Source: a phage
Sequence record: PZ445526.1
Direction: 5' to 3' (one strand)
DNA length: 64,000 bases
Under the pieces are notes generated by a model. The model did not search any database and had not been told where the DNA came from. It was given only the letters and a program-made list of their open reading frames with translations. Positions within the stretch are counted from its first letter, which is position 1. Every line of letters begins with the position of its first letter. Below, piece by piece: positions 20,047 to 41,843 of this stretch. The position numbers and the translations under genes were made by a program.

Positions 20047-20574
20047 TTATGCGAGTACCGTCTTTAACCGTTCTTCAAACTTCCGAAGAGTATTTTGGCG
20101 TTCAGCTCTTTGCTTTTTGTAAGTTTCAATACGCTCTGAAATGAGAGTGTATCGTTCATTTACTGATTCTTTCATAAAATCAGGAATTTCACGAGAAGCT
20201 TTAATCTCGTCAAATTTATCAATAACAGCTTGCTCTTCAGCAATTAAGTTATCATACATCAAAATATCTTTCTTGATGAACTCAATATCTTCTTGAGTTA
20301 CGCGAGATAATTTAGATGCTTTATCCTTTTTGTACTGTTCGTTAGTATCACGAGACCAGTGTAATGTACGATTTTTATTCGTATTCTTGTAAATTTCTAC
20401 AATACCAATCTCATCAATAATAACGATCCAATTCCAACGGGATTTGTAAATTTGTCCTCCGTCAACCGTGATTTCACCTCCGATTGAGATGTCATTAAAG
20501 AACTTGCTTTGTGCTTCAGATTTAAATTTACCATCATTGTAGTTTACCAAGTTGAAAATATCTTTAGCATTCAT
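20047..20574 (-). CDS. hypothetical protein
   Basis: 175 aa from ATG (MNAKDIFNLVNYNDGKFK...); track extension is the translated promoter/5'UTR. Confidence 0.5.
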   Translation of the reverse strand: MNAKDIFNLVNYNDGKFKSEAQSKFFNDISIGGEITVDGGQIYKSRWNWIVIIDEIGIVEIYKNTNKNRTLHWSRDTNEQYKKDKASKLSRVTQEDIEFIKKDILMYDNLIAEEQAVIDKFDEIKASREIPDFMKESVNERYTLISERIETYKKQRAERQNTLRKFEERLKTVLA

Positions 20575-20602
20575 TTTCTGTTCCTCCGTAGTTGATAGTT
20601 GT

Positions 20603-20632
20603 ATAGTACCACAGAGGAACGGTCTTGTAAAC
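20603..20632 (-). promoter_or_regulatory. T4 early promoter cassette (-35 GTTTAC, TGGTACTAT -10)
   Basis: Minus strand GTTTACAAGACCGTTCCTCTGTGGTACTATACAACTATCAAC then GGAGGAA RBS. Confidence 0.55.
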
Positions 20633-20634
20633 AA

Positions 20635-20949
20635 CTAAAAGAAACTTCTTTCACAATTTTTTCCACTAAACCATGCGCTAACCGCTTTCTTAGTCTCAGG
20701 AGCAGTGTTATCCATAAACCATTCAAAAGCAGCCTTTTTATGATTCTGGAGGGCTTCTCGGGCTTTAATCTGCTCACGGTCTATTAACACTAACATATGA
20801 GCCTTTCTTGTCACCAGGGGCTTCTTATGATTTTTTGAATATTCCCAATCATTTGTCCATCGCATCGTTGTTGCGAATTGAAGTACAGCTTCTTTAATCT
20901 TAGTTTCGTAAATTTCACGAGCCTTTGAGTATAACATCATTACCTCCAT
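20635..20949 (-). CDS. hypothetical protein
   Basis: 104 aa ORF. Confidence 0.45.
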   Translation of the reverse strand: MEVMMLYSKAREIYETKIKEAVLQFATTMRWTNDWEYSKNHKKPLVTRKAHMLVLIDREQIKAREALQNHKKAAFEWFMDNTAPETKKAVSAWFSGKNCERSFF

Positions 20950-21038
20950 TTACTAGTTTAATTCTAGTCATCTTTTTGATGGCAGTCCATATAATCTATT
21001 TCTGAACTGCCTTTTTGTCATAGAAGTCCTCTTATGAA

Positions 21039-22007
21039 TTATTTCAGAAGAGTAACCTCAGCGATTTCTTCCCAACCGTTTTTGTCGGTCATAATAAAGT
21101 CAGCAAGATAAAGAGCAGTACGCAGTGAAACATTGCGTAAACGATTAACATTGACTTTCATCCATGATAATGCTTTATAAGTTTCTTCATCAGAAAGACC
21201 GCGCTTTTGCATCATGTCGGTTGAAAGAATAACATCTTCAACCCTGACCATAATTTCTTCATTAGTGTGAACACCCAAATCCAAATAAACTGAGCGGGAC
21301 ACTAATGCTTGTAAATGTGGAGCAAGTTTAGTACCACGGTCTAATTCGCGGTCAATGTCAACGTTTGTGATAAAAACAATCGTTCCTTTAAATTCAAACT
21401 CACGCTCAATGCCTTTTTCTTCTAAGTAAGAAGATGCAGTGCTCCAGCAGACTTTACGGGTCTCTCCAGTGTCCAGAGCAGCTTTCAGAAGATTAAGAAT
21501 GTCCATATCAGAGAAAACATCCACATCATCAATCAAAAGGACAGAATTCTCTTCACGATTATTCCAAAGCTGTTCATAAAGACCAATACCAGAGATTTTA
21601 CCATTAATGCTTTTATATTCAATGTATCCAATATCATTTGCTTTATTTAAAGCTTTATCTAAAGAATACGTTTTACCAATACCCGCCGCACCAGAGATAA
21701 TTAATGAACGAATGTTTCCGTTAATAATACCATTCGTCATCATTCCCATAACATTAAATCTTTTATTAATGCGGGTTTTCATATCTTCATATGATTCTTT
21801 AACTTCTTCAACTTTTACACCATCATATGAAATGTCTGATTTGTAAACCCAAACACCGCGACGTTTACCGTCAATTTCAACAAAAACTTTACCATCTCCT
21901 TGTGCATCTACCGGAGCATTATCTGGGAACCATTCACCTAAGAGCTCAAAAGTTCCAGAGATTTCTTTACCGAAGTAGATACCCTTATTGATAGTTACAG
22001 TTTTCAT
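21039..22007 (-). CDS. P-loop AAA-type ATPase
   Basis: 322 aa from ATG (MKTVTINKGIYFGK...); Walker A SGAAGIGKT, Walker B VLLIDDVD. Confidence 0.6.
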   Translation of the reverse strand: MKTVTINKGIYFGKEISGTFELLGEWFPDNAPVDAQGDGKVFVEIDGKRRGVWVYKSDISYDGVKVEEVKESYEDMKTRINKRFNVMGMMTNGIINGNIRSLIISGAAGIGKTYSLDKALNKANDIGYIEYKSINGKISGIGLYEQLWNNREENSVLLIDDVDVFSDMDILNLLKAALDTGETRKVCWSTASSYLEEKGIEREFEFKGTIVFITNVDIDRELDRGTKLAPHLQALVSRSVYLDLGVHTNEEIMVRVEDVILSTDMMQKRGLSDEETYKALSWMKVNVNRLRNVSLRTALYLADFIMTDKNGWEEIAEVTLLK

Positions 22008-22041
22008 TTTATTCTCCAAATCCGTATCAGTTGATAGTTGT

Positions 22042-22071
22042 ATAGTACCATAAAGCTTTATGCTTGTAAAC
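22042..22071 (-). promoter_or_regulatory. T4 early promoter cassette
   Basis: Minus strand GTTTACAAGCATAAAGCTTTATGGTACTATACAACTATCAAC, A/T-rich upstream, GGAGAATAAAATG RBS. Confidence 0.55.
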
Positions 22072-22097
22072 CGTTTTGTGAAAAAATTTTGAAATAA

Positions 22098-22120
22098 AAA
22101 GGGAGCCCGAAGGCTCCCTA
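22098..22120 (-). terminator. rho-independent terminator
   Basis: GGGAGCC-UUCG-GGCUCCC hairpin followed by UUUUUAUUUC, immediately after the 22121 stop. Confidence 0.65.
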
Positions 22121-23134: not shown

Positions 23135-23592
23135 TCAGCCTTATATTCAATAACAGGACATACTTTAGCTTTACGAGCTTTTAAAAATTCAACGATAACC
23201 GATTTCTTGGGTTGAATAGGAGGTAAACCTTTATACGCCCTATCAATATTTTCTACGTGTAAAGCATAATCCTTTTTCCATTTATAATCTTTATATTTTT
23301 CACGCAAATGTGCAGGAATAACAAATGAACCGATAATAAGTAAAACAACCAAAAGCGCAAGTATAAATGCTGATGGAAGCAAAGTCCATAAACTACCAAA
23401 AATAATCCAACGCTGTAGGCTTTCTGCACAAATAATTGTTAGCCCTACGAGTATAGCACATCCAAAAATAGAAACGAAAAATGTAGGAATGGCAATAGAC
23501 CAAAAATATGCGCATAGTGTCTTAGGTCGTTGCCATTCATCGTTAAACAATTTGAATAATTTATAGTGCCAAGAGTTTTCATTAATAATCAT
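23131..23592 (-). CDS. membrane protein
   Basis: 153 aa; two to three hydrophobic helices (AYFWSIAIPTFFVSIFGCAILVGLTIICA, LLALLVVLLIIGSFVIPA). Confidence 0.5.
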   Translation of the reverse strand: MIINENSWHYKLFKLFNDEWQRPKTLCAYFWSIAIPTFFVSIFGCAILVGLTIICAESLQRWIIFGSLWTLLPSAFILALLVVLLIIGSFVIPAHLREKYKDYKWKKDYALHVENIDRAYKGLPPIQPKKSVIVEFLKARKAKVCPVIEYKAE

Positions 23593-23594
23593 AA

Positions 23595-24116
23595 TTATCC
23601 TTTCATTGAAGGCGTAACGGTTGTTAAATACTTAATCATAGCTTCAGCTTCTGATTTTGATAATGAAATTTCTCCATTGTTTTGACGAATAGAAATAAAA
23701 TCCGGATGACGGTCACCACCAGCTTTTAAAACACACATATAAGTATCAACTTCGCCTTCAATATTTGAAATGATTGAAGCAGTTCCACATGAATGCGGTT
23801 TTTGATAAATCAATACAGCTTTTCTTCCGCCATTTGACTGCTCATAGGCTTTTAATACATCAAACAAATCAGTTCTTTTATCAATAGCTAAAATGTTATT
23901 TTCATCTTCAATGTTAAATCCTTCGGATACTTCATAAAGCGTTACCCATAAATCACCAATGTCAATAACAGCATTTACTTTTCCACGGCTTTCAAGGGTA
24001 TGACAAATTTTCTTGATTTCGTCATAACTCATTTTAATAATATCATCTCCTTGAATAAGGAAGATGTCATTTTTAAATTCAACACGAATTAAACCGCTTC
24101 CACTTGAAATAAACAT
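23595..24116 (-). CDS. hypothetical protein, paralog pair member 1
   Basis: 173 aa; shares EGFNIE...SEAEAMIKYLTTVTPSM architecture with next ORF. Confidence 0.5.
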   Translation of the reverse strand: MFISSGSGLIRVEFKNDIFLIQGDDIIKMSYDEIKKICHTLESRGKVNAVIDIGDLWVTLYEVSEGFNIEDENNILAIDKRTDLFDVLKAYEQSNGGRKAVLIYQKPHSCGTASIISNIEGEVDTYMCVLKAGGDRHPDFISIRQNNGEISLSKSEAEAMIKYLTTVTPSMKG

Positions 24117-24122
24117 ATTTCC

Positions 24123-24668: not shown

Positions 24669-24800
24669 TACATACTCCTCTGAATCATATCAATAATGTT
24701 GTTCACCAGATTATAAGTAAACATTGGGTAATTATATTGAATCATCACATACACAACAAACAAAACTTTCATTCTCTTCTCCTTGGCAGTTGACAAGATT

Positions 24801-24830
24801 ACTATACCATAACCTTGCCAACTTGTAAAC
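24801..24830 (-). promoter_or_regulatory. T4 early promoter (-35 GTTTAC, -10 TATAGT)
   Basis: Minus strand GTTTACAAGTTGGCAAGGTTATGGTATAGT. Confidence 0.5.
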
Positions 24831-24995
24831 CATTAAATGACGTTTTCGATAAAATTCTGAAGCTTTGTGTGAGCATCAACCATGATTTTCATTTCTTCTT
24901 TGGCGAAAGCTATACCTCTTTCCCGAGAAGAACATTCATAGTCAGAAACTGCATTAGCATATTCTTCAATTAGCTTCATTAAAAACATCTGCTTT

Positions 24996-25190
24996 TCAGT
25001 TTTCATTATTCCACCTAATCATTTCAAGATATTGAACTAACTTAGCTTTAGATTTATCCAAATCCTTTTTAGCTGCTTCTATACCGTCGTATGAATATCC
25101 TTCACAATGCTCAACTGCTAATTGATATGAATCTATTTCAATATCACGTGCTAATTTAATGATTTTTTCAAACTGTTCACGTGTTAGCAT
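24996..25190 (-). CDS. hypothetical protein
   Basis: 64 aa ORF. Confidence 0.4.
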   Translation of the reverse strand: MLTREQFEKIIKLARDIEIDSYQLAVEHCEGYSYDGIEAAKKDLDKSKAKLVQYLEMIRWNNEN

Positions 25191-25411: not shown

Positions 25412-25563
25412 GCCATGTGAGTTGCAACTTCATCACACATATTATAACGTTTCTTGAGAAGTTCTACAAGTTCTTCACTAGTAACTTCATCCATGTCGAC
25501 GAAAAAATCACCATTAATGATGACGTAGATATTTCCTTCTTGATTGAGTGCTTCAATTTTCAT
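25375..25563 (-). CDS. hypothetical protein
   Basis: 62 aa from ATG ([10 protein letters not shown]...); GAGGAGA RBS. Confidence 0.4.
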
Positions 25564-25591
25564 GATGTTCTCCTCTTTATCCGATAGTTGT

Positions 25592-25621
25592 ATAGTACCA
25601 CAGCTCAAACGGAAAGTAAAC
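25592..25621 (-). promoter_or_regulatory. T4 early promoter cassette
   Basis: Minus strand GTTTACTTTCCGTTTGAGCTGTGGTACTATACAACTATC. Confidence 0.55.
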
Positions 25622-25630
25622 CGGTAAAAT

Positions 25631-25655
25631 GAAAAAAGTCTCCCGAAGGAGACTA
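25631..25655 (-). terminator. rho-independent terminator
   Basis: GUCUCC-UUCG-GGAGAC hairpin followed by UUUUUUC, just upstream of the early promoter. Confidence 0.6.
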
Positions 25656-26602: not shown

Positions 26603-27184
26603 CTAACCGAGCTTTTTAGTTAATTCATTCCAATGTTTTCTACACAAAGAAACATAAATTTCATCACCAATACAGATTTGATTACCTTCTTTAACTGGTG
26701 TTCCATCTTCCATTAATCGAGCTGTCATAATCGCTTTTTTGCCGCAATGACAAACTGCCTTTAGTTCAATAAGTTTATCTGCAATCGCTAAAAGTTCTTT
26801 AGAACCTTCAAATAATTTTCCAGCGAAATCAGTCCTTAATCCATAAGCCATAACAGGAACATTATATGTATCAACAATTCGACTTAATTGATGCACCTGT
26901 TCAGTTTTTAAAAATTGGGCTTCATCTACAAATACGCAATGAATATCTTTTTGTGCTTCAGCCCATTTATAGAACTCGAAAATATCCATATCATCTGTGA
27001 TAATATTCGCTTCCTGCTTAATTCCAATGCGAGAAACGACTTCACAGACAGAATCGCGAGTATCAATAGCAGGCTTAAGAACTAATACACTCATTCCGCG
27101 TTCTTTATAATTATGTGCAGCAGTCAAAAGAGAAGCAGATTTTCCAGCATTCATTGCTGCATAAGTAAAAATTAAACTCGCCAT
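26603..27184 (-). CDS. tk: thymidine kinase
   Basis: 193 aa; P-loop YAAMNAGKS, zinc ribbon CHCGKK...CRKHW. Confidence 0.9.
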   Translation of the reverse strand: MASLIFTYAAMNAGKSASLLTAAHNYKERGMSVLVLKPAIDTRDSVCEVVSRIGIKQEANIITDDMDIFEFYKWAEAQKDIHCVFVDEAQFLKTEQVHQLSRIVDTYNVPVMAYGLRTDFAGKLFEGSKELLAIADKLIELKAVCHCGKKAIMTARLMEDGTPVKEGNQICIGDEIYVSLCRKHWNELTKKLG

Positions 27185-27185
27185 C

Positions 27186-27374
27186 TTAGTCCTTAGTTAA
27201 ATTTTCTAAATATGTTTCTAAATCATTTTCAGCTTTATCGATAGATTTTACTAATTCGTAATATGTTTCGGCATCTCCATAATCAGAAGATAATTCAAAA
27301 GACAAATCCTTTTCTAAACTAATAATTTCACCAACTAAAAATAATATTTCGTTCTTTTGTTCGCGAGTAATCAT
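27186..27374 (-). CDS. hypothetical protein
   Basis: 62 aa acidic ORF. Confidence 0.4.
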   Translation of the reverse strand: MITREQKNEILFLVGEIISLEKDLSFELSSDYGDAETYYELVKSIDKAENDLETYLENLTKD

Positions 27375-27556
27375 AATGAATTTATATAATCAATGAGTTC
27401 TTGTTCTTTATTATCAAATTCTTTAGAAAGTTCTTCGTATTCATTTGCGCTAAAAGGACCGCATTCATTACAAACTTTTTCCAATTCACTATTTTTATCC
27501 ATAACTTCGTGGATAAGAGAAAAGAGTTTGTCTTTTTGTTCTTTGCTTAGGCTCAT
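27371..27556 (-). CDS. hypothetical protein
   Basis: 61 aa ORF. Confidence 0.4.
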   Translation of the reverse strand: MSLSKEQKDKLFSLIHEVMDKNSELEKVCNECGPFSANEYEELSKEFDNKEQELIDYINSL

Positions 27557-27726
27557 ATATTAATTTCCAGAAGTTTTAAAATAATTCGTTTTTGCTTAAA
27601 TATTTCCATAGTTAAATGATCAGTATCTTTTTGACCAATTCCAATGGCAAAACCTTTATTAGCAGCGAGTTCAATTAAATTATCAAGTTCGCGTAACACT
27701 TCGTACTGTAACTCAGAACTATTCAT
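27553..27726 (-). CDS. hypothetical protein (57 aa)
   Basis: Hand-translated MNSSELQYEVLRELDNLIELAANKGFAIGIGQKDTDHL...; ATGA overlaps on both sides; below track cutoff. Confidence 0.35.
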   Translation of the reverse strand: MNSSELQYEVLRELDNLIELAANKGFAIGIGQKDTDHLTMEIFKQKRIILKLLEINI

Positions 27727-27935
27727 TTCGGTTTACCTTCTTTAACGAAATCTGGATAAGGATAAAATCCCGAATAAAATCCTTCACCTTTATGATTGAT
27801 GCATCCTTTATTAGAACAATAGCACCAATAATCAAAATCACAAGCCATTTCATCGTTGCATAAAGCAAAAACAACCGGCCATTTACACTTTTCACAATGA
27901 GCATTTTTAAGAATACTAGTTTGGCTCATAACCAT
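27723..27935 (-). CDS. small cysteine-rich (zinc-binding?) protein
   Basis: 70 aa with HCEKCKW...CNDEMACDFDYWCYCSNKGCINH. Confidence 0.45.
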   Translation of the reverse strand: MVMSQTSILKNAHCEKCKWPVVFALCNDEMACDFDYWCYCSNKGCINHKGEGFYSGFYPYPDFVKEGKPK

Positions 27936-29491: not shown

Positions 29492-29953
29492 TCATTGAGT
29501 TTTAATTACTGCTTTAGAAGCCTTTCCTGGTAAACGACGACTGTTAATAATTGCCATCCTACATTGAAGTGACGGGTCTTTGAACTTTGCATTAGGTTTA
29601 CAAACTGTAAATCCAAGCCAAAGATTTCCATCTGTGATTTCTAAACGTCCAGGACGATATTCAACCCCATCAATAAAATCCTCGTCAATGTCAGGACGCG
29701 GTGGCATACTCAAGAATTCATTAACTTCTAAAACATGGTCTTTTATTTTATGGAATAATTCAAAAACATATGTCTCATCAATCTCTCGTTGAATTGCGCG
29801 ATCAAGAAGATGTTGAGAATATTTTAGATGAAACGATGAGACTCCTGCTGCTTTTGATGCCTCACGAATCTCATTGTTAATTTGACGAAACTCCGACTCA
29901 AAGTGACGACGAAGCTTATTTCGACGGATAAAAACTTCTGTATTGATAGTCAT
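29492..29953 (-). CDS. regB: site-specific endoribonuclease RegB
   Basis: 153 aa, MTINTEVFIRRNKLRRHFESEFRQINNEIREASK...; matches T4 RegB by recall. Confidence 0.85.
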   Translation of the reverse strand: MTINTEVFIRRNKLRRHFESEFRQINNEIREASKAAGVSSFHLKYSQHLLDRAIQREIDETYVFELFHKIKDHVLEVNEFLSMPPRPDIDEDFIDGVEYRPGRLEITDGNLWLGFTVCKPNAKFKDPSLQCRMAIINSRRLPGKASKAVIKTQ

Positions 29954-29980
29954 GTTATTCTCCTCTTAACTGATAGAAAA

Positions 29981-30010
29981 ATTATACCACAGTCAAGAGG
30001 AAAAGTAAAC
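29981..30010 (-). promoter_or_regulatory. T4 early promoter upstream of regB (-35 GTTTAC, TGTGGTATAAT -10)
   Basis: Minus strand GTTTACTTTTCCTCTTGACTGTGGTATAAT. Confidence 0.6.
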
Positions 30011-30012
30011 AG

Positions 30013-30291
30013 TTATTCTTTAAATCTAATCAATTTATTCATAGACTTTGAAACTTCTGCACGAACCTCATGTAGATTTTTGAGTTGTTCAAGACGCTGC
30101 GCATAGTAAGCAATTTCATCTTCTTCGAGACAGTCCTGCGAATCTTCTTTAAGATAACGTGCATAGTCCTGGAAAGCGTTACGGACTACTTCCTGGAAGT
30201 CATCAAGACTTTGAATTTTCTTAGGAGCAACAGACACACGACGAGGGGCAGTATAATACTCATAACCAAACCCTGCGCTTAATTGAGCCAT
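30013..30291 (-). CDS. hypothetical protein
   Basis: 92 aa from ATG ([13 protein letters not shown]...); track start is GTG. Confidence 0.4.
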
Positions 30292-32147: not shown

Positions 32148-32621
32148 TTATTTGAACGATTTAACGTACTGAATAGAACCTTTACTATTCACAAAGGCAA
32201 TTTTACCATTTTTGTTATACATGGTAGCAGTACGTTGATAACCGTAAGTTTGTTTACCAGATTGATAACCAACTAATGCGAAATTATCTTCACCCATTTT
32301 ATTCTGCTTAGCACGAATGCGTTCATGACCATGTGCCATAAGAACCTTAGCATCACCAGTTGCAATGGATCGACGAGTTTTTTCATCTTCAACTGTATTA
32401 ACAAAGTCGTCAAATGAATCAAATTTAGCATGAGATTTATTATACAGTTTTCCATCTACTGCATAATTATATCCTTGTACATCCATCTCAACTTCTGTAC
32501 CATCATCCAATACAGCAGTGATTTTTTGACCTTTTTTAAATTTCAAAAGATCAGTAAAAGATTCAGCAATAATTTGAGAATTAATAGCTGCTTCAGTAAT
32601 AAATTCTTGATATGTTTTCAT
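32148..32621 (-). CDS. internal-protein-like virion protein with capsid-targeting leader (ipII position)
   Basis: 157 aa; N-terminus MKTYQEFITEA matches the T4 IP/Alt leader; own early promoter. Confidence 0.6.
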   Translation of the reverse strand: MKTYQEFITEAAINSQIIAESFTDLLKFKKGQKITAVLDDGTEVEMDVQGYNYAVDGKLYNKSHAKFDSFDDFVNTVEDEKTRRSIATGDAKVLMAHGHERIRAKQNKMGEDNFALVGYQSGKQTYGYQRTATMYNKNGKIAFVNSKGSIQYVKSFK

Positions 32622-32674
32622 GTGTTTCCTTTAAATGTAAATATTTTTATTATTCTATCCAAGTAATTGTGAAT

Positions 32675-32703
32675 ATATTATCACAATTCTAGGAGCTGTA
32701 AAC
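32675..32703 (-). promoter_or_regulatory. T4 early promoter
   Basis: Minus strand GTTTACAGCTCCTAGAATTGTGATAATAT. Confidence 0.5.
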
Positions 32704-32739
32704 TGCTTTTATTTATAAGCGTCCCAAGTATAAGCTTTA

Positions 32740-33321
32740 TTAAGAATTACCACGGGCTGCATTAGCAACGGCGTAAGCGTACTGAATATTAGCGTCTTTA
32801 AACTTACCTTTAGAGGTATCTATTTCTGCCTTAAAGCCGCCTTTAGTCATAACATCGGCAAATTCTTTACGGAAAGCCATTGCATCAAGACCTTTCCATG
32901 ATGATTTATGCTTGGCAAATTCAAGACCGGCAAAGTTAACAGCCTTAGCTAATTTATTATCAATAACCCATTTACCGGCTTTAGGCACAAACTTCGGACC
33001 TTTCTGTTTAGAGAACAGTTTTAAATTCCAGCGGCGAAGGTCTGCATCAGCTTTAACAAATTCTGAGTCTAAGTTACTAGCAACAACATCTTCAATATGA
33101 GCAAATTTAAGTCCGTCAACTTCAATATTTAAATCGGTACGCCAGCGAAGTCCTTCCCAAGCGAAGGCTTTAAAGTCGGAAGCCTTTGTAGCTAAGTACC
33201 GTTCAATAGGAGCTGTTTTAGGGTCAAAGCCGTTTCCCGATCGGTAGGTCCACTCATCTTTATTAATGCCTTTGGCCTTTACTACAGAAGCTTCAGCAAT
33301 AAATTCTTGATAGGTTTTCAT
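32740..33321 (-). CDS. ipIII: internal protein III
   Basis: 193 aa, MKTYQEFIAEASVVKAKGINKDEWTYRSGNGFDPK...; matches T4 IPIII by recall. Confidence 0.85.
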   Translation of the reverse strand: MKTYQEFIAEASVVKAKGINKDEWTYRSGNGFDPKTAPIERYLATKASDFKAFAWEGLRWRTDLNIEVDGLKFAHIEDVVASNLDSEFVKADADLRRWNLKLFSKQKGPKFVPKAGKWVIDNKLAKAVNFAGLEFAKHKSSWKGLDAMAFRKEFADVMTKGGFKAEIDTSKGKFKDANIQYAYAVANAARGNS

Positions 33322-33375
33322 GTGTTTCCTTTAAATATTTTAATTAGTAATCTATCTATTCAAGTAACTGTGAAT

Positions 33376-33405
33376 ATACTATCACAATTCCAAGAGAAAG
33401 TAAAC
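33376..33405 (-). promoter_or_regulatory. T4 early promoter upstream of ipIII
   Basis: Minus strand GTTTACTTTCTCTTGGAATTGTGATAGTAT. Confidence 0.5.
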
Positions 33406-33409
33406 AACT

Positions 33410-34378
<969 letters not shown>

Positions 34379-34397: not shown

Positions 34398-34867
34398 TCA
34401 GTGATAAAGTTATTTAAATTTTGAGCATATTTCTTTTCATCAAAAATCTTTTGTTGTCTGCGTAAACGCCATGGCATTTCAATGAACATGCGCCATATTC
34501 CTGATAATACTGCTGCTGTAAAAATATTAACAAGTATAGTTAAAAGAATCCAATCTCCTATTCTGTCCATTGGATTTTTTATAAAAAAGTAAAATACGAA
34601 TGATGATATAGGAAGACTAATGATATACCACAGAAGAACCTTCTTATCTGTGAACCAATCAGCATTCGTTAACTTAGCACGACCATTTTGAATACACACG
34701 AATTTATCATCTGTTACAGTAAATGGCTTAGCTGCTTGATATCCCATTCTAAACTCCCTAATTAATCGTTTCTTTGTATCTTCGGAACAACCATTCCAGT
34801 CAACTCTATCAACTGGAATGCCATCATCCCCATCATCTAAATCATACCAGCGAGTTTTTAAAATCAT
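34379..34867 (-). CDS. membrane protein
   Basis: 162 aa; hydrophobic helices LLWYIISLPISSFVFYFFI, ILLTILVNIFTAAVLSGIW. Confidence 0.5.
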
Positions 34868-36858: not shown

Positions 36859-37035
36859 TTATACTCCGGATAGTTTGTAAACTATTTCAACATCGCCTTT
36901 TGCTGCTTTATAACCTTCAGCCCAAGATACAACCGAGTTTTTATCTGAAGATTCAAATTCTGGCATTGGGCTTTCGCCAATGTTCACGCAGTATGTTTCT
37001 TCATTTTCGTCGAACCAAATAATTAAAGTAGTCAT
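36859..37035 (-). CDS. hypothetical protein (58 aa)
   Basis: Hand-translated MTTLIIWFDENEETYCVNIGESPMPEFESSDKNSVVSWAEGYKAAKGDVEIVYKLSGV; below track cutoff. Confidence 0.35.
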   Translation of the reverse strand: MTTLIIWFDENEETYCVNIGESPMPEFESSDKNSVVSWAEGYKAAKGDVEIVYKLSGV

Positions 37036-37103
37036 TTATTTCTCCGTTTCTGTATTTGTTTTGATAAGTCTATAATAACACCGTCCTTGGTGTTTGTACA
37101 CAA

Positions 37104-37367
37104 TTATTTCATATTATTGAAATATTCTTCTGCAATTTCGTCGTTATCATGGTAAACTTTAGAAGACAGTTTAACATAACCTTCAGCAGTGAACATGTTA
37201 ATCACAACCTTTACAGTATACCACTGACCATCTTCATTACCCATTACTGCATAGGTTTCAAACATCGGATGGTCAGGACCGATAACTTTAATATCATTCA
37301 CTGTACGACCAAAATCTTCTGAAACACATTTCATAAAGAAGTTGAACAGTTCGCCGTAATTATCCAT
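37104..37367 (-). CDS. hypothetical protein
   Basis: 87 aa from ATG (MDNYGELFNFF...); GGAGAATAAAATG RBS; track start is TTG. Confidence 0.45.
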   Translation of the reverse strand: MDNYGELFNFFMKCVSEDFGRTVNDIKVIGPDHPMFETYAVMGNEDGQWYTVKVVINMFTAEGYVKLSSKVYHDNDEIAEEYFNNMK

Positions 37368-37410
37368 TTTATTCTCCAAGTTGTTTTCTGTATCAGTAGT
37401 TGATATTGAT

Positions 37411-37440
37411 ATAGTACCATGGAAGAACAGGGATGTAAAC
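37411..37440 (-). promoter_or_regulatory. T4 early promoter cassette
   Basis: Minus strand GTTTACATCCCTGTTCTTCCATGGTACTATATCAATATCAAC. Confidence 0.55.
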
Positions 37441-37569
37441 AGTTTTGTGAAAAATTTTTTAAAAAGTTTTGGGGAATTCTAGGGCAGGGAGGGGCAATTA
37501 AAGGATAGGATAATATATTATAAAGGATAGAAACTAAATGATGCCTAGAGAGGCCCAGAAAGGTCTAGA

Positions 37570-37598
37570 TGCCAAAAAGCCCTATCATTTAGATAGGG
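37570..37598 (-). terminator. rho-independent terminator
   Basis: CCCUAUC-UAAAU-GAUAGGG hairpin followed by CUUUUUGG, directly after the 37607 stop. Confidence 0.55.
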
Positions 37599-37606
37599 AT
37601 TTAAAA

Positions 37607-38173
37607 TTATTTGCTTAGTTTAGTTATTATAGCTTCTGCGGCAGCTTTTAGCTTAGATGCGGTGTTAATACGATTTTTAATTTCAGTATACGCATCGCCA
37701 AGAACATCAAGGCTATCAGAATAAACACTTACACTATTGCGTTCGCTATTTGAAATAGAACCTTTAGTTTTACGATCAAAATCGGTGTATACGTCTTGAA
37801 GATCGCGTGCTGCCTTCTTTGCATCATCCAATGCATCAAGAGCTTTATTCAAAGCATTAACGTATTTTTTAGTATCGAACATATTCTTAGAAATTTTAAC
37901 AGGCGCACGTTCAGGAGTAGCTAAGGCAGATTTAGGAAGAACCTGTTTGCCAGATGCCAGTTTCTTAGAAATTTTGAAAAACGCTTTATTGAAATTATTT
38001 TCTTGACTCATCGTAAAAGAACTATTATCAATGTTATACATTTCAATAGCTTTAGCTTTCCACTTAAGAAAATCGCCACGGTCTTTTGGGTCCAAGTGGA
38101 AGAATACTTTAGTAAGATCTGCTTCAGATGGTAATTTTGCTGCTTCGGTTAAAAATTCGGCATAGGTTTTCAT
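37607..38173 (-). CDS. internal-protein-like virion protein with capsid-targeting leader
   Basis: 188 aa; N-terminus MKTYAEFLTEAAKL resembles the T4 IP leader. Confidence 0.5.
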   Translation of the reverse strand: MKTYAEFLTEAAKLPSEADLTKVFFHLDPKDRGDFLKWKAKAIEMYNIDNSSFTMSQENNFNKAFFKISKKLASGKQVLPKSALATPERAPVKISKNMFDTKKYVNALNKALDALDDAKKAARDLQDVYTDFDRKTKGSISNSERNSVSVYSDSLDVLGDAYTEIKNRINTASKLKAAAEAIITKLSK

Positions 38174-38247
38174 TTAAAATCCTTGAAATAATTTATTGGT
38201 TATTAATTATTTATTATCCGTAACAGCATTCTCTGAGTGATTCAAAC

Positions 38248-38277
38248 TAAAAAGCCCCAACCTTTCGGTCAGGGCTA
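38248..38277 (-). terminator. rho-independent terminator closing the tRNA/stable-RNA unit
   Basis: 10-bp stem (AGCCCUGACC/GGUUGGGGCU with two G-U pairs), GAAA tetraloop, then UUUUU. Confidence 0.65.
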
Positions 38278-38587
38278 AGCCTTGCGGCAACCTTGTCGGG
38301 GTTCCACCTGCTAAGGCAAGTGTTTGTACGAAACGCCGGGACTTGAACCCGGTTATTAAGTAGTTGACGCTACTCAATATTTTTAAAAGGCCATATCTCG
38401 ACCATATCCGAACGTTCCGTCAAAAACGCTACTCGGCTTACGGCAAAGATATTTCCTCGAATCGATAATTCGGTGCGCCGTTTCTGCTGTGATGTAAGGG
38501 GATATTAACAAATCGTAAAGATTTATTAAGACCAGTCCTTACTCAGGGAACATCAGTCCGACGACTTACCGGTAGCGACCCGGTTTC
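38278..38587 (-). ncRNA. candidate structured stable RNA(s), possibly counterparts of T4 species 1/2 RNAs
   Basis: No ORF of 60 aa or more on either strand; tRNA-like T-arm CCGGGUUCAAGUCCCGG at 38336-38352 with possible acceptor pairing CGGAACG/CGUUUCG; adjacent to tRNA cluster and followed by strong terminator. Confidence 0.4.
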
Positions 38588-38938
38588 TTAATATTCTTTT
38601 AAAGCATCAATCTGTTCACGGCGTTTACGCCATAAATCAATTGCTTCATACGCGGATTCAGCATTTCGAATTGGTCGGCATTTATGTAAAGACTTGTGAT
38701 TTTGATATTTTGTAGATAATGGAATTTTATCTAAAAGGTCTTTACGTTCAAAGTATTCGTAACCATCTAAACCAAATGAACGATTTTTGAGAAATTGCCA
38801 ATGACCATATTCGTTTTGGATGTAAATATAATCCGCGTGTTGATAAAGCAAATTAGTTTCACGAGATGAGATATGGTTTTCATATTCATTGAAGTAAAAT
38901 GTTAAATCATGAACTACTAAATAAACATTACCTTTCAT
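38588..38938 (-). CDS. hypothetical protein
   Basis: 116 aa ORF between the stable-RNA region and tRNA-Arg. Confidence 0.45.
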   Translation of the reverse strand: MKGNVYLVVHDLTFYFNEYENHISSRETNLLYQHADYIYIQNEYGHWQFLKNRSFGLDGYEYFERKDLLDKIPLSTKYQNHKSLHKCRPIRNAESAYEAIDLWRKRREQIDALKEY

Positions 38939-38956
38939 ATTTTCCTCACTTATAAT

Positions 38957-39032
38957 TGGTCGAGGCAGTAGGGATCGAACCTACGACCCAGGACTTAGAA
39001 GGTCCTTGCTCTTCCTTCTGAGCTATGCCTCG
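38957..39032 (-). tRNA. tRNA-Arg (anticodon UCU)
   Basis: Hand-folded cloverleaf: acceptor CGAGGCA/UGCCUCG, anticodon loop CUUCUAA, T-loop GGUUCGAUCC, encoded CCA. Confidence 0.8.
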
Positions 39033-39036
39033 GATT

Positions 39037-39111
39037 TGGCGGACGTGATAGGATTCGAACCTATAACCAATCGCTTAACAGGCGATCGCTCTGCCATTGA
39101 GCTACACATCC
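39037..39111 (-). tRNA. tRNA-Asn (anticodon GUU)
   Basis: Acceptor GGAUGUG/CACGUCC, anticodon stem AUCGC/GCGAU with loop CUGUUAA, T-loop GGUUCGAAUCC, encoded CCA. Confidence 0.75.
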
Positions 39112-39115
39112 AAAT

Positions 39116-39202
39116 TGGTGGGGAGTGATGGAGTCGAACCACCCGAGTCGCAATGACAATGGATTTACAGTCCACACCGCTACCTCTACGGGATAACTCC
39201 CC
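39116..39202 (-). tRNA. tRNA-Tyr (anticodon GUA), long variable arm
   Basis: Acceptor GGGGAGU/ACUCCCC, anticodon loop CUGUAAA, long extra arm, T-loop GGUUCGACUCC, encoded CCA. Confidence 0.7.
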
Positions 39203-39212
39203 CAAATTAATT

Positions 39213-39287
39213 TGGTGGCCCTGGGTGGAATTGAACCACCATCTGGCGATTATGAGTCGCTTGCTTGAACCTTCCAGCTACAGGGCC
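39213..39287 (-). tRNA. tRNA with CAU anticodon (T4 tRNA-Ile counterpart, or Met)
   Basis: Acceptor GGCCCUG/CAGGGCC, anticodon loop CUCAUAA, T-loop GGUUCAAUUCC, encoded CCA; same position as T4 tRNA-Ile. Confidence 0.7.
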
Positions 39288-39288
39288 T

Positions 39289-39364
39289 TGGTGCTGATTG
39301 ACGGAATCGAACCGCCGACCTTCTCATTACAAGTGAGTTGCTCTACCTACTGAGCTAAATCAGC
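39289..39364 (-). tRNA. tRNA-Thr (anticodon UGU)
   Basis: Acceptor GCUGAUU/AAUCAGC, anticodon loop CUUGUAA, T-loop GGUUCGAUUCC, encoded CCA. Confidence 0.75.
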
Positions 39365-39369
39365 AAAAC

Positions 39370-39459
39370 TGGCGGAGGCGATAGGATTTGAACCTATGAG
39401 TCGCCGGAGCGACTGCCGGTTTTCAAGACCGGTGCATTAAACCACTCTGCCACGCCTCC
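39370..39459 (-). tRNA. tRNA-Ser (anticodon UGA), long variable arm
   Basis: Acceptor GGAGGCG/CGCCUCC, anticodon stem CCGGU/ACCGG with loop CUUGAAA, long extra arm, encoded CCA. Confidence 0.75.
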
Positions 39460-39461
39460 AG

Positions 39462-39535
39462 TCTCCGTGGCAGGATTTGAACCTACGACATTCTGCTCCC
39501 AAAGCAGACGCTCTACCAAACTGAGCTACACGGAG
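39462..39535 (-). tRNA. tRNA-Pro (anticodon UGG), CCA not encoded
   Basis: Acceptor CUCCGUG/CACGGAG, anticodon stem UCUGC/GCAGA with loop UUUGGGA; 3' end reads ...GAGACUGG. Confidence 0.75.
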
Positions 39536-39545
39536 TAAATTAAAT

Positions 39546-39619
<74 letters not shown>

Positions 39620-39624
39620 AAATT

Positions 39625-39711
39625 TGGTGCGAGAAGTGGGACTCGAACCCACAAGGAAATCATTCCGCAGCATTTTAAGTGCTGTGCCTTTACCAATTTG
39701 ACCATTCTCGC
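39625..39711 (-). tRNA. tRNA-Leu (anticodon UAA), long variable arm
   Basis: Acceptor GCGAGAA/UUCUCGC, anticodon stem CAGCA/UGCUG with loop CUUAAAA, long extra arm, encoded CCA. Confidence 0.75.
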
Positions 39712-39712
39712 G

Positions 39713-39785
39713 CTGGGAATAAAGGACTCGAACCTTTGCATCCTGGAATCAAAATCCAGTGCCTTACCAACTTGGCTAATTCCCA
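39713..39785 (-). tRNA. tRNA-Gln (anticodon UUG), CCA not encoded
   Basis: Acceptor UGGGAAU/AUUCCCA, anticodon stem CUGGA/UCCAG with loop UUUUGAU, T-loop GGUUCGAGUCC. Confidence 0.75.
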
Positions 39786-39882
39786 ATTATTAACAAAGGC
39801 TCTCTAACAAGAACCCTTGATGATAGAGGGTATTAATCAGTGCGGTATGAGTTAATAATAACAAATAATTCTTAAAGCATAT

Positions 39883-40170
39883 TTACCATTTATGATGATA
39901 CATACTTACGATGCATTCAAGACCCAAAGGATTCTTGAAAATATCATATTCAAGAGGACCTTTTTCTGTTTCAATAAAGAAATCAAAATTTACTGTATTA
40001 AATTTACGGTCTTCCTTTACTAATTTAACTTGAGAAGATGAACGGTCAATGTAAACCCTTTCAACTTCAAAACATGTTAAAATGCCATAATCATCAATCA
40101 AGGCTTTAGCCGCGGATTGATCATATTTATATCCATTTTCAATGGATGATACTTTAGCATAAAGAATCAT
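39883..40170 (-). CDS. hypothetical protein
   Basis: 95 aa ORF. Confidence 0.4.
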   Translation of the reverse strand: MILYAKVSSIENGYKYDQSAAKALIDDYGILTCFEVERVYIDRSSSQVKLVKEDRKFNTVNFDFFIETEKGPLEYDIFKNPLGLECIVSMYHHKW

Positions 40171-40172
40171 TA

Positions 40173-40583
40173 TCAGCCTCTATCAACGATAGTATGAGTA
40201 TGGGCATTTACGATTTGCCACCAGTCGAAACGATTGGAACCATAATCTGGTTTATTTTCATTTTCTTTAATGATATCACGCAGCTTATCTTCTGTTTCAG
40301 CATACGCAATTAAATCATCATATCCACCACAAGGATAATAATTATCACCTGCGAATAAAAGAAAATTTACCTTAGATGGATTTACGTAATAATGGTCTTT
40401 AGGATATTTAGTTCCTCTCCAATCAGTTACTTCAACATAACGGTAAGAAAATCCATTTTTACTTTCAATCCAACTCCACGCTTCAAAAGGAGTATTAAAA
40501 ACTTTATCAGGTATTAAATTACCTTCAAAATGAGAAGGATTTGCATAATCCCCGGCATAAACATAATATTCGTTAATACTCAT
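40173..40583 (-). CDS. hypothetical protein
   Basis: 136 aa ORF, Tyr/Trp-rich. Confidence 0.45.
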   Translation of the reverse strand: MSINEYYVYAGDYANPSHFEGNLIPDKVFNTPFEAWSWIESKNGFSYRYVEVTDWRGTKYPKDHYYVNPSKVNFLLFAGDNYYPCGGYDDLIAYAETEDKLRDIIKENENKPDYGSNRFDWWQIVNAHTHTIVDRG

Positions 40584-40769
40584 TTATTCACCTTTAGAAA
40601 TTTTATCCATAACGATAGCGATTAAACCAATTAAAAATGCTACTACAAGTGAAAACACATTTTCTGCTGTAGTTAATAATCCGCATATAAATCCAGCAAA
40701 CATTGAAAAACTAAAAGCGGAAGCAGAAATTGCAATAGCAACATTTCGAATTAATTCACAGCGTTTCAT
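40584..40769 (-). CDS. small membrane protein
   Basis: 61 aa from ATG (MKRCELIRNVAIAISASAFSFSMFAGFICGLL...); track extension is translated promoter/5'UTR. Confidence 0.45.
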   Translation of the reverse strand: MKRCELIRNVAIAISASAFSFSMFAGFICGLLTTAENVFSLVVAFLIGLIAIVMDKISKGE

Positions 40770-40797
40770 TTTATTCTCCTCAGTAGTTGATAGTGTA

Positions 40798-40827
40798 ATA
40801 GTATCACAACTAAAACCGCATGTAAAC
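40798..40827 (-). promoter_or_regulatory. T4 early promoter cassette
   Basis: Minus strand GTTTACATGCGGTTTTAGTTGTGATACTATTACACTATCAACTACTGAGGAGAATAAAATG. Confidence 0.55.
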
Positions 40828-40830
40828 AAT

Positions 40831-41055
40831 TTATTCAACACCAGCGGCTTTCAAAAGTTTCTTAAGATTGGCAACACCTTGAGCAGAAAATGTGACCTTG
40901 CCACCTTTTTCACTGATAGAACCAACCAATTTAGCAAGTTTATCATTAGGAATTTTTTTAAAATCAGCCAATGTTCCATCAAAGGTTTTTGAAACAAAAG
41001 GCAGTTCATCTTCATGTCTTTTAGCTTCTACAATAAATTTTTGATATGTTTTCAT
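40831..41055 (-). CDS. internal-protein-like virion protein with capsid-targeting leader
   Basis: 74 aa from ATG: MKTYQKFIVEAKRHEDELPF...; own early promoter. Confidence 0.55.
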   Translation of the reverse strand: MKTYQKFIVEAKRHEDELPFVSKTFDGTLADFKKIPNDKLAKLVGSISEKGGKVTFSAQGVANLKKLLKAAGVE

Positions 41056-41091
41056 TTTATTCTCCAATTTCACATTTGTTTTGATAGGGTA

Positions 41092-41121
41092 ATAGTATCA
41101 CTACCCCATCTAAAAGTAAAC
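41092..41121 (-). promoter_or_regulatory. T4 early promoter cassette
   Basis: Minus strand GTTTACTTTTAGATGGGGTAGTGATACTATTACCCTATCAAAAC. Confidence 0.55.
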
Positions 41122-41131
41122 AGTTTATAAA

Positions 41132-41440
41132 CTATTTTATTCCGCGTGATGCAATTGTGTTCTGTCGTTTAACACCAGTTTGTTTAAAGTCATGATTGTC
41201 GATTTGATCGGTACGAGCAACTCCGAATGATGATTTGATCTTAGCTTTAGATCCTTTAGTTATAGAAATAAACATCTCAGAAGCCCCTTTCTTAAAGTCC
41301 GAGGCGATTACTTCAACGCCGTTCTTAGCAAGTGACTTCAGAATTGCCTCCGCGTATTCATCGTCAAGACTTGCCTGAGTATTAATAACGAATGTCTTTG
41401 GCGCAGCCGCTTCATTGATAAATTCTTTAAATGTTTTCAT
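41132..41440 (-). CDS. internal-protein-like virion protein with capsid-targeting leader
   Basis: 102 aa: MKTFKEFINEAAAPKTFVINTQ...; own early promoter. Confidence 0.55.
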   Translation of the reverse strand: MKTFKEFINEAAAPKTFVINTQASLDDEYAEAILKSLAKNGVEVIASDFKKGASEMFISITKGSKAKIKSSFGVARTDQIDNHDFKQTGVKRQNTIASRGIK

Positions 41441-41470
41441 TTTATTTTCCTAATTAATTTTGATAGGGTA

Positions 41471-41500
41471 ATAGTATCACTACCCTATTTAAAAGTAAAC
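41471..41500 (-). promoter_or_regulatory. T4 early promoter cassette
   Basis: Minus strand GTTTACTTTTAAATAGGGTAGTGATACTATTACCCTATCA. Confidence 0.55.
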
Positions 41501-41773
41501 TCATTTTAAATAAATTGCGTATTTTTTATAACCCGCTGACTCATGACGAAGACCCTTATCATTAGCAAAACGCTCAATGTTGTTAATTTGATTCTGATCA
41601 AGTTCAGAGATGTCAAACACGAAAAAGTTACGTTTGTTACCAACTGTTATATAGTCAGTTAAATCAATATCATATAGGTAATTGATGTCAGCAATCAAAG
41701 TCTTGACAGCTTTGCTAATTTTTACTTTTTCGTTAAAAGCAGCTTCAGCAATAAATTCTTGATACGTTTTCAT
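41501..41773 (-). CDS. internal-protein-like virion protein with capsid-targeting leader
   Basis: 90 aa from ATG: MKTYQEFIAEAAFNEKVKISKAVKT...; identical leader to IPIII. Confidence 0.55.
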   Translation of the reverse strand: MKTYQEFIAEAAFNEKVKISKAVKTLIADINYLYDIDLTDYITVGNKRNFFVFDISELDQNQINNIERFANDKGLRHESAGYKKYAIYLK

Positions 41774-41801
41774 TTTATTCTCCTCAGTAGTTGATAGGGT
41801 A

Positions 41802-41831
41802 ATAGTATCACTACTAAAACCCAGTGTAAAC
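41802..41831 (-). promoter_or_regulatory. T4 early promoter cassette
   Basis: Minus strand GTTTACACTGGGTTTTAGTAGTGATACTATTACCCTATCAACTACTGAGGAGAATAAAATG. Confidence 0.55.
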
Positions 41832-41843
41832 AACTTTGTGAAA

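Follow-up and report, generated by a model that had tools for sequence, protein, structure and literature searches.

The early promoters of phage T4 combine an UP element, a -35 element, a TGn motif and a -10 element with extra consensus regions (Hinton 2010 review, PMC2988021), and the regB promoter of T4 has been termed a typical early promoter by a review. Here, a repeated minus-strand cassette with the anatomy of such promoters is analyzed on a stretch of phage DNA of 64,000 nucleotides (nt; record PZ445526.1), which is called the window throughout. Lists of T4 early promoters are said to have been compiled by Liebig and Rueger in 1989, by Wilkens and Rueger, and by Miller et al. in 2003. 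A related type of element is the PeSL (promoter-early stem-loop), in which an early promoter is combined with a stem-loop. For the pair PST/T4, PeSLs consist of an AT-rich region, the pattern TTTACW-N17-TAYWAT, a Shine-Dalgarno (SD) sequence, a start codon and a stem-loop (Comeau 2014, PMC4122927), and their activity as terminators or attenuators as well as cassette-to-cassette mini-circles have been shown for RB49/phi1 only (Arbiol 2010, PMC2839356). As related in these two papers, Repoila 1994 had seen elements based on T4 early promoters at two variable internal-protein (IP) loci (PMC2839356, PMC4122927).

By megablast, the window belongs to the genus Tequatrovirus and represents a T4/T2-like coliphage, with vB_EcoM_G4498 as nearest relative (96% identity) and T2, T4, Shfl2 and RB18 likewise close. 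We are highly confident that the copies of the cassette are T4-type early promoters followed by a leader and a ribosome-binding site, and that the cassettes of the IP loci are paralogous repeats, which would allow the exchange of gene bodies. With 10 of 14 copies, T4 DNA shows 92-100% identity at corresponding map positions, and the T4 orthologs found at 92-100% are nrdC.4, nrdC.8, nrdC.10, mobD.2, mobD.5, regB, ipII, ipIII, e.8 and trna.4; the cassettes of nrdC.10 and mobD.5 reach 99% and 98%, respectively. In position and orientation the copies behave as T4 early promoters do: they lie on the coding strand upstream of an SD sequence and ATG, and the ten are orthologous to T4 sites. Due to this orthology and to the published descriptions of early promoters, PeSLs and IP-locus cassettes, the motif is an already known feature.

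A profile hidden Markov model (HMM) was built from 12 copies and searched over both strands of the whole window. It found 15 copies, all on the minus strand; 13 of these lie within 20574-41840, where an earlier reading made from the letters alone (the sequence-only reading) had counted at least eleven, and the -35 elements of the other two are at 17655 and 9947. On the plus strand and in the late-gene half, the same search gave no credible copy. In 38 related loci, all 91 HMM matches are on the coding strand. A minus-strand GTTTAC-N18-TAnnAT unit is present at each of the eight coordinates for which the sequence-only reading had named a copy. The copies are the following:

41771-41856, minus strand: P41831; -35 at 41831-41826, -10 TACTAT at 41807-41802, ATG at 41773; in front of a gene for an internal protein of 90 amino acids (aa; 41501-41773).
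41438-41525, minus strand: P41500; -35 at 41500-41495, -10 at 41476-41471, ATG at 41440; 102-aa internal protein (41132-41440); the hairpin ATAGGGTAGTG/TATTACCCTAT flanks the -10 on both sides.
41053-41146, minus strand: P41121; -35 at 41121-41116, -10 at 41097-41092, ATG at 41055; 74-aa internal protein (40831-41055).
40767-40852, minus strand: P40827; -35 at 40827-40822, -10 at 40803-40798, ATG at 40769; trna.4 (40584-40769); right-hand breakpoint of the IP-locus replacements (40810-40834).
37365-37465, minus strand: P37440; -35 at 37440-37435, -10 at 37416-37411, ATG at 37367; e.8; 94% identical to T4 70741-70621.
37033-37126, minus strand: P37101, a weaker copy; -35 GTGTAC at 37101-37096, -10 TATTAT at 37077-37072, ATG at 37035; open reading frame (ORF) of 58 aa (36859-37035); a variable slot, occupied by e.7 in T4.
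33319-33430, minus strand: P33405; -35 at 33405-33400, -10 TAGTAT at 33381-33376, 54-nt leader, ATG at 33321; ipIII (32740-33321).
32619-32728, minus strand: P32703; -35 at 32703-32698, 17-nt gap, -10 TAATAT at 32680-32675, ATG at 32621; 157-aa ipIV-type internal protein (32148-32621).
29951-30035, minus strand: P30010; -35 at 30010-30005, -10 TATAAT at 29986-29981, ATG at 29953; regB; the spacer pairs with the SD in a hairpin of -21.4 kcal/mol; 100% identical to T4 62842-62738.
25561-25654, minus strand: P25621; terminator hairpin upstream (25654-25637), -35 at 25621-25616, -10 at 25597-25592, ATG at 25563; mobD.5.
24770-24855, minus strand: P24830; -35 at 24830-24825, -10 TATAGT at 24806-24801, ATG at 24772; mobD.2; hairpin of -19 kcal/mol around the -10.
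22005-22119, minus strand: P22071; terminator hairpin upstream (22119-22100), -35 at 22071-22066, -10 at 22047-22042, ATG at 22007; nrdC.10.
20572-20657, minus strand: P20632; -35 at 20632-20627, -10 at 20608-20603, ATG at 20574; nrdC.8; the spacer GTTCCTCTGT pairs with ACGGAGGAAC, which includes the SD.
17595-17680, minus strand: P17655, beyond the range of the sequence-only reading; drives nrdC.4; 100% identical to T4 51018-50913.
9885-9972, minus strand: P9947, likewise beyond that range; drives a 60-aa ORF (9705-9887).
41744-41773, minus strand: coding sequence of the decapeptide MKTYQEFIAE, with equivalents at 41411-41440, 41026-41055, 33292-33321 and 32592-32621.

With the -10 as anchor of the alignment, the consensus of the 15 copies reads tttt.a.aaA..t GTTTAC N7 t N5 tgTG. 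TA.TAT ...c.TATcaAcT ... gga.aa.a. The -35 is GTTTAC in 14 copies and GTGTAC in one; the two hexamers are 18 nt apart in all copies but one, which has 17 nt, and this corresponds to the 17-nt spacing of T4 early promoters if the sigma-70 numbering (TTTACa register) is used. The extended -10 TG at -15/-14 is present in all 15 copies, and T22 and G23 do not vary across 50 non-redundant cassettes. In the 25 nt that precede the -35, the AT content averages 75%, compared to 65.5% for the background of the early region (standard deviation of 9.6% per 25-mer), and the seventh base past the -10 is an A in 14/15 copies. Between -10 and ATG there are 27-54 nt, exactly 28 nt in seven copies, with a good SD in every one. 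Thus, each copy joins an early promoter, an SD and a start codon in one compact unit, as PeSLs do, and two copies (P22071 and P25621) have a canonical intrinsic terminator directly upstream. Behind the cassettes stand three IP genes, trna.4, e.8, the 58-aa ORF, ipIII, the ipIV-type IP gene and regB, followed by mobD.5, mobD.2, nrdC.10, nrdC.8, nrdC.4 and the 60-aa ORF.

Compared to the T4 early promoters, which have the same UP-like AT stretch, GTTTAC, TGn, TA(C/T)(A/T)AT, conserved bases in the start region and siting on the early strand, nothing essential differs. TACTAT is more frequent than TATAAT as the -10 of the window (9/15), and it is also found in most cassettes of other T-even genera. 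A few of the genes behind the promoters do differ from T4, with an ipIV-type gene for ipII, three IP genes for ipI and the 58-aa ORF for e.7. Conservation across genera is also seen for the initial transcribed region (c)TATCAA(c/a), a part of which forms the 3' arm of the inner stem described below. The 9-mer TTTCACAAA occurs at five sites, all on the minus strand (41843, 37452, 26029, 22083 and 9959), four of which are 3-4 nt upstream of a -35 GTTTAC (P41831, P37440, P22071 and P9947); it looks like a conserved UP-element variant of one promoter subfamily. A scan with a generic sigma-70 consensus was tried as well and did not single out the cassettes (98 sites vs. 89 expected; 60 vs. 60.5). 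Only a T4-specific pattern or profile picks out these sites.

The label of an early promoter/5'UTR cassette, which the sequence-only reading had given to the copies, is borne out by the full set of T4 early-promoter features and by the near-identity to T4 at the same positions, and the units as such are real. Its single pattern of roughly 55 nt holds in part. GTTTAC..TGGTAYTAT does match five copies exactly (0.00 expected in shuffles), but the consensus was stitched together from subfamilies and is not one repeated 55-mer. CAACTATCAAC occurs exactly twice even if one mismatch is allowed, which is no more than chance, GGAGAATAAAATG five times, always inside cassettes, and TGGTACTAT four times; four of the copies it had named, those of the IP loci, carry TGATACTAT in place of TGGTACTAT, and TGATACTAT is found at seven minus-strand sites in all. 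False shared N-termini exist for two ORFs only. There are exactly two instances of the peptide TITLSTTEENKM (41806-41771 and 40802-40767; P41831 and P40827), which are in-frame read-through of two nearly identical leaders and appear in the ORF track because the ORF calls begin at an upstream TTG or GTG. Overlooked was the real capsid-targeting decapeptide behind five cassettes. That most accessory genes sit directly behind a cassette is not the case, since of about 50 protein genes within 20000-41900 (a gene set obtained by interval scheduling with manual fixes) 13 follow one, about a quarter.

On injected DNA, each cassette would be read by the host sigma-70 RNA polymerase, which would use the AT-rich UP-like stretch, the -35 GTTTAC (TTTAC[A/T] in the sigma-70 register with a 17-nt spacer), the TGn and the -10 TA(C/T)(A/T)AT. 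Transcription would start at the A about 7 nt past the -10 and yield a leader of about 20-45 nt with GGAG or AGGAG 5-8 nt before the ATG. Each of the 15 copies would stand at the head of a short immediate-early transcription unit with 1-8 genes on the minus strand, and the likeness of the copies would mostly reflect shared functional constraint.

The IP loci are where the cassettes are more than promoters. Five genes behind cassettes begin with MKT[YF].[EK]FI.EA, by which internal proteins of T-even phages are targeted to the capsid, and otherwise belong to five different internal-protein families of PHROG. Here, the repeat comprises promoter, leader and about 33 nt of coding sequence. P33405 and P32703 have 147 nt in common at 81% identity, P41831 and P40827 69 nt at 91% with an exact run of 30 nt, and P41500 and P41121 89 nt at 83%; in all other pairs of cassettes, the common stretch does not exceed 66 nt (about 75% identity), exact runs do not exceed 22 nt, and only consensus positions are shared. 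The left breakpoints of the IP replacements coincide with the end of the sequence coding for the targeting peptide (41738-41753, 32590 and 33289), and the right breakpoints fall into the next cassette (40810-40834, 32729 and 33421). Differences in copy number and indels at these loci are flanked by direct repeats of 47-153 bp of cassette DNA. A 560-bp ipIII module is present or absent between patches of 146-153 bp, and the overlaps at locus A measure 47-80 bp. Furthermore, G4498, HMD-9 and RB18 carry a chimeric cassette with the P41831 promoter and a P41121-type leader, and the promoter-leader-targeting patch of T4 ipII (T4 65716-65842) is 92% identical in the window, where it drives an unrelated ipIV-type gene (32148-32728). 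The gene denV, located downstream of ipII in T4, is absent from the window.

A conserved promoter and leader together with a shared N-terminus are thus found at 57B-trna.4 and at e-denV/vs.8, the T-even IP loci (57B to trna.4; e to vs.8/denV), where variable numbers of unrelated IP genes are known to stand behind such a promoter/leader and targeting peptide. The window differs from these loci only in its combination of IP genes, three at one and two at the other, and G4498 has the same three at locus A. In our reading, the IP cassettes are true paralogous repeats of 70-150 nt, which run into the 30-nt capsid-targeting coding sequence; because of this extension each IP gene body is bracketed by homology, and the bodies would be swapped, lost or gained by homologous recombination. 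It is the junction anatomy which points to such an exchange.

Whether cassettes in general mark points of gene exchange was analyzed in two ways. Chained alignments against 12 Tequatrovirus relatives, in which overlaps between alignments were allowed, gave 81 structural differences and 50 breakpoint clusters. Cassette zones, which cover 7.4% of the region, hold 18 of these clusters (p = 7e-9). Relative to random positions the clusters are enriched in cassette zones, but the excess over other 5' junctions of genes is weak (8/13 cassettes hit vs. 15/42, one-sided p = 0.09), and six of the eight cassettes hit are those of the IP loci. In addition, 401-nt queries centered on junctions were compared to phage records of GenBank, and records with at least 80% of the query covered in one place were counted as keeping the junction. 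These counts merge pieces up to about 700 bp apart, and therefore they detect gene replacement, not short insertions. The results were as follows:

vs.3 / regB junction: 497/502 records.
rI.-1 / mobD.5 junction: 500/502 records.
mobD.2a / mobD.2 junction: 492/492 records.
Upstream DNA / e.8 junction: 510/551 records.
nrdC.9 / nrdC.8 junction: 499/615 records (81%).
nrdC.11 / nrdC.10 junction: 467/526 records (89%).
vs.6 / vs.7 junction, the cassette-free control: 648/786 records.
57B / first IP gene junction: 38/579 records (7%).
e / ipIII junction: 46/634 records (7%).
e.8 / 58-aa ORF junction (slot of P37101): 189/623 records (30%).

The gene pair is kept in 93-100% of the matching records at the regB, mobD.5, mobD.2 and e.8 junctions, and for six of the nine cassette junctions tested, the majority of about 500 relatives keep the pair. 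Early-promoter cassettes as such therefore do not appear to be recombination hotspots, in contrast to the repeats of the IP loci and to one or two other slots. The shuffling by homology patches that the sequence-only reading had proposed is the published PeSL/IP-locus idea (PMC2839356, PMC4122927), and it is supported for the IP loci, for the P37101 slot, which carries different genes in different phages, and for occasional insertions at nrdC.10. At most other cassettes the gene order is conserved, and the shuffling part of its interpretation is only local.

At nrdC.10, a whole terminator-UP-promoter-ORF module is inserted in T2 and HMD-9. It is located between nrdC.11 and nrdC.10 and has repeats of about 55-65 nt on its two sides (a T-run plus ATTTCAAAAATTTTTTCACAAA..GTTTAC; 22055-22119 in the window). 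The region concerned is 2008-2744 in L001, the T2 locus, and 2308-3048 in L043, the HMD-9 locus; the extra ORF measures 486 bp and is annotated as RNA polymerase ADP-ribosylase in HMD-9. In KAW1E185 (L041, 2290-2700), a 66-aa ORF is inserted in the nrdC.10 leader and followed by a second promoter-like unit GTATAC..TATAGT, the -10 of which lies within a perfect 10-bp inverted repeat, GATAGGACTA/TAGTCCTATC. The longer nrdC.10 leader of the window, CTGATACGGATTT (22017-22031), looks like a remnant of a KAW1E185-like unit.

Many indels are located at cassette-free junctions, for example in the mobD region, in the segB/tRNA region with the tRNA cluster and at the small ORFs of tk.1-tk.3. The window lacks mobD and segB, two homing endonuclease genes of T4 (23135-24098 and 38279-39541), and the corresponding breakpoints are not at early-promoter cassettes. 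Small ORFs at 27184-27380, 27557-27925 and 34408-34864 (tk.1-tk.3 and e.2 regions) are present or absent between relatives. Their breakpoints are translationally coupled gene junctions with an overlap of 0-30 bp and no promoter. By this independent route, genes are gained and lost where no cassette is present.

A further property of many cassettes is an inverted repeat, which would fold as RNA only in transcripts arriving from upstream. Between the end of the -35 and the ATG, the sequence folds better than its dinucleotide shuffles (mean z = -2.4; p <= 0.017 in 8/15 copies), and the hairpins of regB, nrdC.8 and mobD.2 reach -19 to -21 kcal/mol. The promoter spacer forms the 5' arm, the -10 hexamer the loop and the leader the 3' arm, so that the stem-loop overlaps or adjoins the promoter as it does in PeSLs. 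For the 46 non-redundant cassettes of all loci analyzed, the duplex of spacer and leader averages -10.8 kcal/mol in cis vs. -6.9 in trans, and none of 5000 permutations was as low. An inner stem in fixed register, in which -10..-5 pair with +6..+11 (relative to the first base of the -10), has 61% of its cells paired vs. 48% in shuffles and is better than every slid register; its covariation score is 0.346 vs. 0.170 in shuffles (0/500 as high). This stem is present in about 60% of the cassettes and missing in about 40%.

In some cassettes the pairing includes the SD. The regB orthologs of three clades keep the pairing of spacer and SD with different stems (CTTGACTG/CAGTTAAG, CTAGTTG/CAACTAG and TGTAAG/CTTACA), and for nrdC.8 it is kept in two of three clades. 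The compensatory pairs of regB were read directly from the sequences and not from the MAFFT alignment; RNAalifold undercounts them because MAFFT places the 3' arm out of register. For regB and nrdC.8, the predicted accessibility of the SD is 0.00 in read-through and rises to 0.34-0.41 in the transcript from the predicted own start; for nrdC.10, the two values are 0.05 and 0.63. At e.8, it is near zero in read-through and the SD is still masked (0.08) in the own transcript. A hairpin that embeds the promoter and pairs with the SD is thus predicted only for regB, nrdC.8 and nrdC.10. A general masking of the SD by the hairpin was considered and rejected, as the mean accessibility in read-through is 0.40 vs. 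0.42 for ordinary internal genes. The SD pairs with the spacer in 16/46 cassettes both in cis and in trans, and the anti-SD motif of the spacer is therefore generic and not cis-specific.

Different explanations of these observations have been put side by side. That the copies are dispersed selfish repeats, MITE-like or homing-associated and unrelated to transcription, appears extremely improbable. Such repeats would be short intergenic units, some of them adjoining variable ORFs, as the copies are; however, no terminal inverted repeats or target duplications are common to the copies, conservation is limited to the positions of promoter and ribosome-binding site, strand and spacing relative to the start codons are strict, the positions are conserved between T4 and the window, and the homing endonuclease genes of the region (mobD and segB) sit at cassette-free breakpoints. 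The cassette anatomy already contradicts this explanation. It is also unlikely that all copies, and not just those of the IP loci, are PeSL-type mobile regulatory cassettes, whose main role in evolution would be to provide portable homology for ORF shuffling across the hyperplastic regions via neighbor exchange and mini-circles; this is the proposal of the sequence-only reading in its general form. The published PeSL model covers the pair PST/T4 (PMC4122927), and the five-fold enrichment of breakpoint clusters in cassette zones over random positions would fit to it, as would the module of T2/HMD-9 and the ORF with promoter of KAW1E185 at nrdC.10 and the variable gene content behind P37101. On the contrary, six cassette junctions (regB, mobD.5, mobD.2, e.8, nrdC.8 and nrdC.10) are as stable as or stabler than the cassette-free control, the excess over other gene junctions is weak and stems from IP-locus cassettes in six of eight cases, the exact runs between non-IP copies are short, and indels are frequent where no cassette is present. 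The opposite explanation, by which the copies are promoters only and have no role in recombination, seems quite improbable as well. Here, selection would preserve the regulatory DNA and the targeting peptide, whereas host defenses would exert diversifying selection on the IP bodies, which could be replaced by whatever mechanism. Promoter, leader and capsid-targeting sequence are functionally constrained and would therefore survive any replacement, and the IP bodies stem from unrelated families; furthermore, most of the cassette junctions tested are stable, nrdC.8 and nrdC.10 included, so that the presence of a cassette is not enough for shuffling. Nevertheless, copy-number changes between long direct repeats, as for the ipIII module, are a signature of unequal homologous exchange, chimeric cassettes exist, and T4 has a very active homologous recombination system.

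The identification as T4-type early promoters with paralogous, exchange-prone repeats at the IP loci also has points that weigh against it. The start sites and their timing are deduced from sequence and T4 orthology, and the experimental mapping of each T4 ortholog is taken from reviews and general background; our literature search found no paper mapping T4 start sites, and the record AF158101 lists no promoter features. P37101 (with GTGTAC), P33405 and P32703 fit the profile less well (E = 0.02, 5e-4 and 0.11, respectively). Breakpoints at cassette edges would also be expected from selection for promoters after any gene replacement. A last explanation adds to the early-promoter reading and does not replace it, and it is possible although somewhat doubtful: the inverted repeat could act as a switch that reads the origin of a transcript. 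In transcripts arriving from upstream, the folded hairpin would mask the SD (regB, nrdC.8 and nrdC.10) or attenuate or stabilize the upstream message, and mRNA from the own promoter, which lacks the 5' arm, would be translated. The fold z-score, the duplex energy in cis over trans and the covariation of the inner stem are in line with this, as are the pairing kept across clades at regB and nrdC.8 and the gain in predicted SD accessibility at these two genes and nrdC.10. Against it stand the lack of a general SD masking, the generic anti-SD motif, the cassettes without inner stem and the shuffle tests, which are inflated by the relatedness among cassettes. In addition, stem-loops overlapping the -10 are an already listed PeSL subclass in RB49/phi1, where they are read as terminators or attenuators (PMC2839356).

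RBS-sequestering hairpins (RBS, ribosome-binding site) with an embedded promoter are known in T4 for e, soc, 39, 25, 26, I-TevI/II/III and segB as well as for mobE of Aeh1, and the genes concerned are all late genes (PMC2988022). The hairpins of e, soc and I-TevI have the same geometry as those of regB, nrdC.8 and nrdC.10. The promoter lies inside and the 3' arm holds the SD, and due to this the RBS is free only on transcripts of the embedded promoter. The T4 cases differ in that they use late (or middle) promoters; a late gene behind a late or middle embedded promoter is not found here, since the promoters of the window are of the early type, and the window cases are predicted and concern a minority of the cassettes. 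We tentatively propose, and regard as rather doubtful, that in early promoters of T-even phages the spacer serves as the 5' arm of a hairpin with the own leader, which would include the SD at regB, nrdC.8 and nrdC.10 and at similar cassettes in other genera. The spacer, which usually passes for free sequence, would then be under RNA-level selection, and the gene would be translatable, and its GGAG open to RegB, only on mRNA from its own promoter. If true, this would be the early-promoter counterpart of the late-promoter hairpin switches of e, soc and I-TevI.

With the PeSLs of RB49/phi1, PST/T4 and nt-1/KVP40, the window copies share the AT-rich region, early promoter, stem-loop, SD and start codon, and the PST/T4 consensus TTTACW-N17-TAYWAT fits to them. 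Also PeSL-like are the two true upstream terminators (22119-22100 and 25654-25637) and the several copies that adjoin indels. In contrast to PeSLs, most window copies are not at variable junctions, and their stems are AT-rich and weak, not polyG/polyC. Arbiol 2010 drew an analogy to the gene cassettes of integrons, in which, as with the early cassettes, small ORF modules associated with a promoter come and go at defined sites. The cassette system contains neither an integrase nor attC/attI, and exchange would proceed by general homologous recombination; thus, this is an analogy only.

The surroundings of the cassettes are those of a T4-type genome. Bases 1-45229 hold early and middle genes on the minus strand (nrdC.x, mobD.x, rI, tk, vs, regB, ipIII and e, together with a 10-gene tRNA cluster, IP genes, 57B, 57A, 1, 3, 2 and 4), and late baseplate and tail genes are present on the plus strand from 45277 on. 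The tRNA cluster (38957-39785) has 10 genes compared to eight in T4, and its content differs from T4 as well as from relatives with tRNA-His or segB; a search of Rfam gave the 10 tRNAs and no other match. A minus-strand ORF of 188 aa (37607-38173), outside the two classical IP loci, has the N-terminus MKTYAEFLTEA, which is capsid-targeting-like, and an L-x-E cleavage motif, and matches only PHROG 2280 (unknown function). It has no early promoter and comes after a terminator hairpin (38276-38253). In the relatives L003, L034 and L041-L045, a second such gene adjoins its counterpart; it encodes 157 aa beginning with MKSYAQFLNEA and is preceded by a terminator and by a late-promoter motif similar to TATAAATA. 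This region may be a third, late-expressed internal-protein locus.

For annotation, the findings mean that ORF calls which run through the leaders need trimming to the SD and ATG, and that 15 units of early transcription can be annotated in the window. For phage evolution, two ideas which are usually merged can be told apart by means of the large sample, namely that early-promoter cassettes as such are hotspots and that the longer repeats of the IP loci are; it is these longer promoter-leader-targeting-peptide repeats which appear to be the hotspots, and this bears on the exchange of anti-defense internal proteins. The cis-complementarity of spacer and leader is testable, and by this T-even phages may tie translation to the origin of the transcript.

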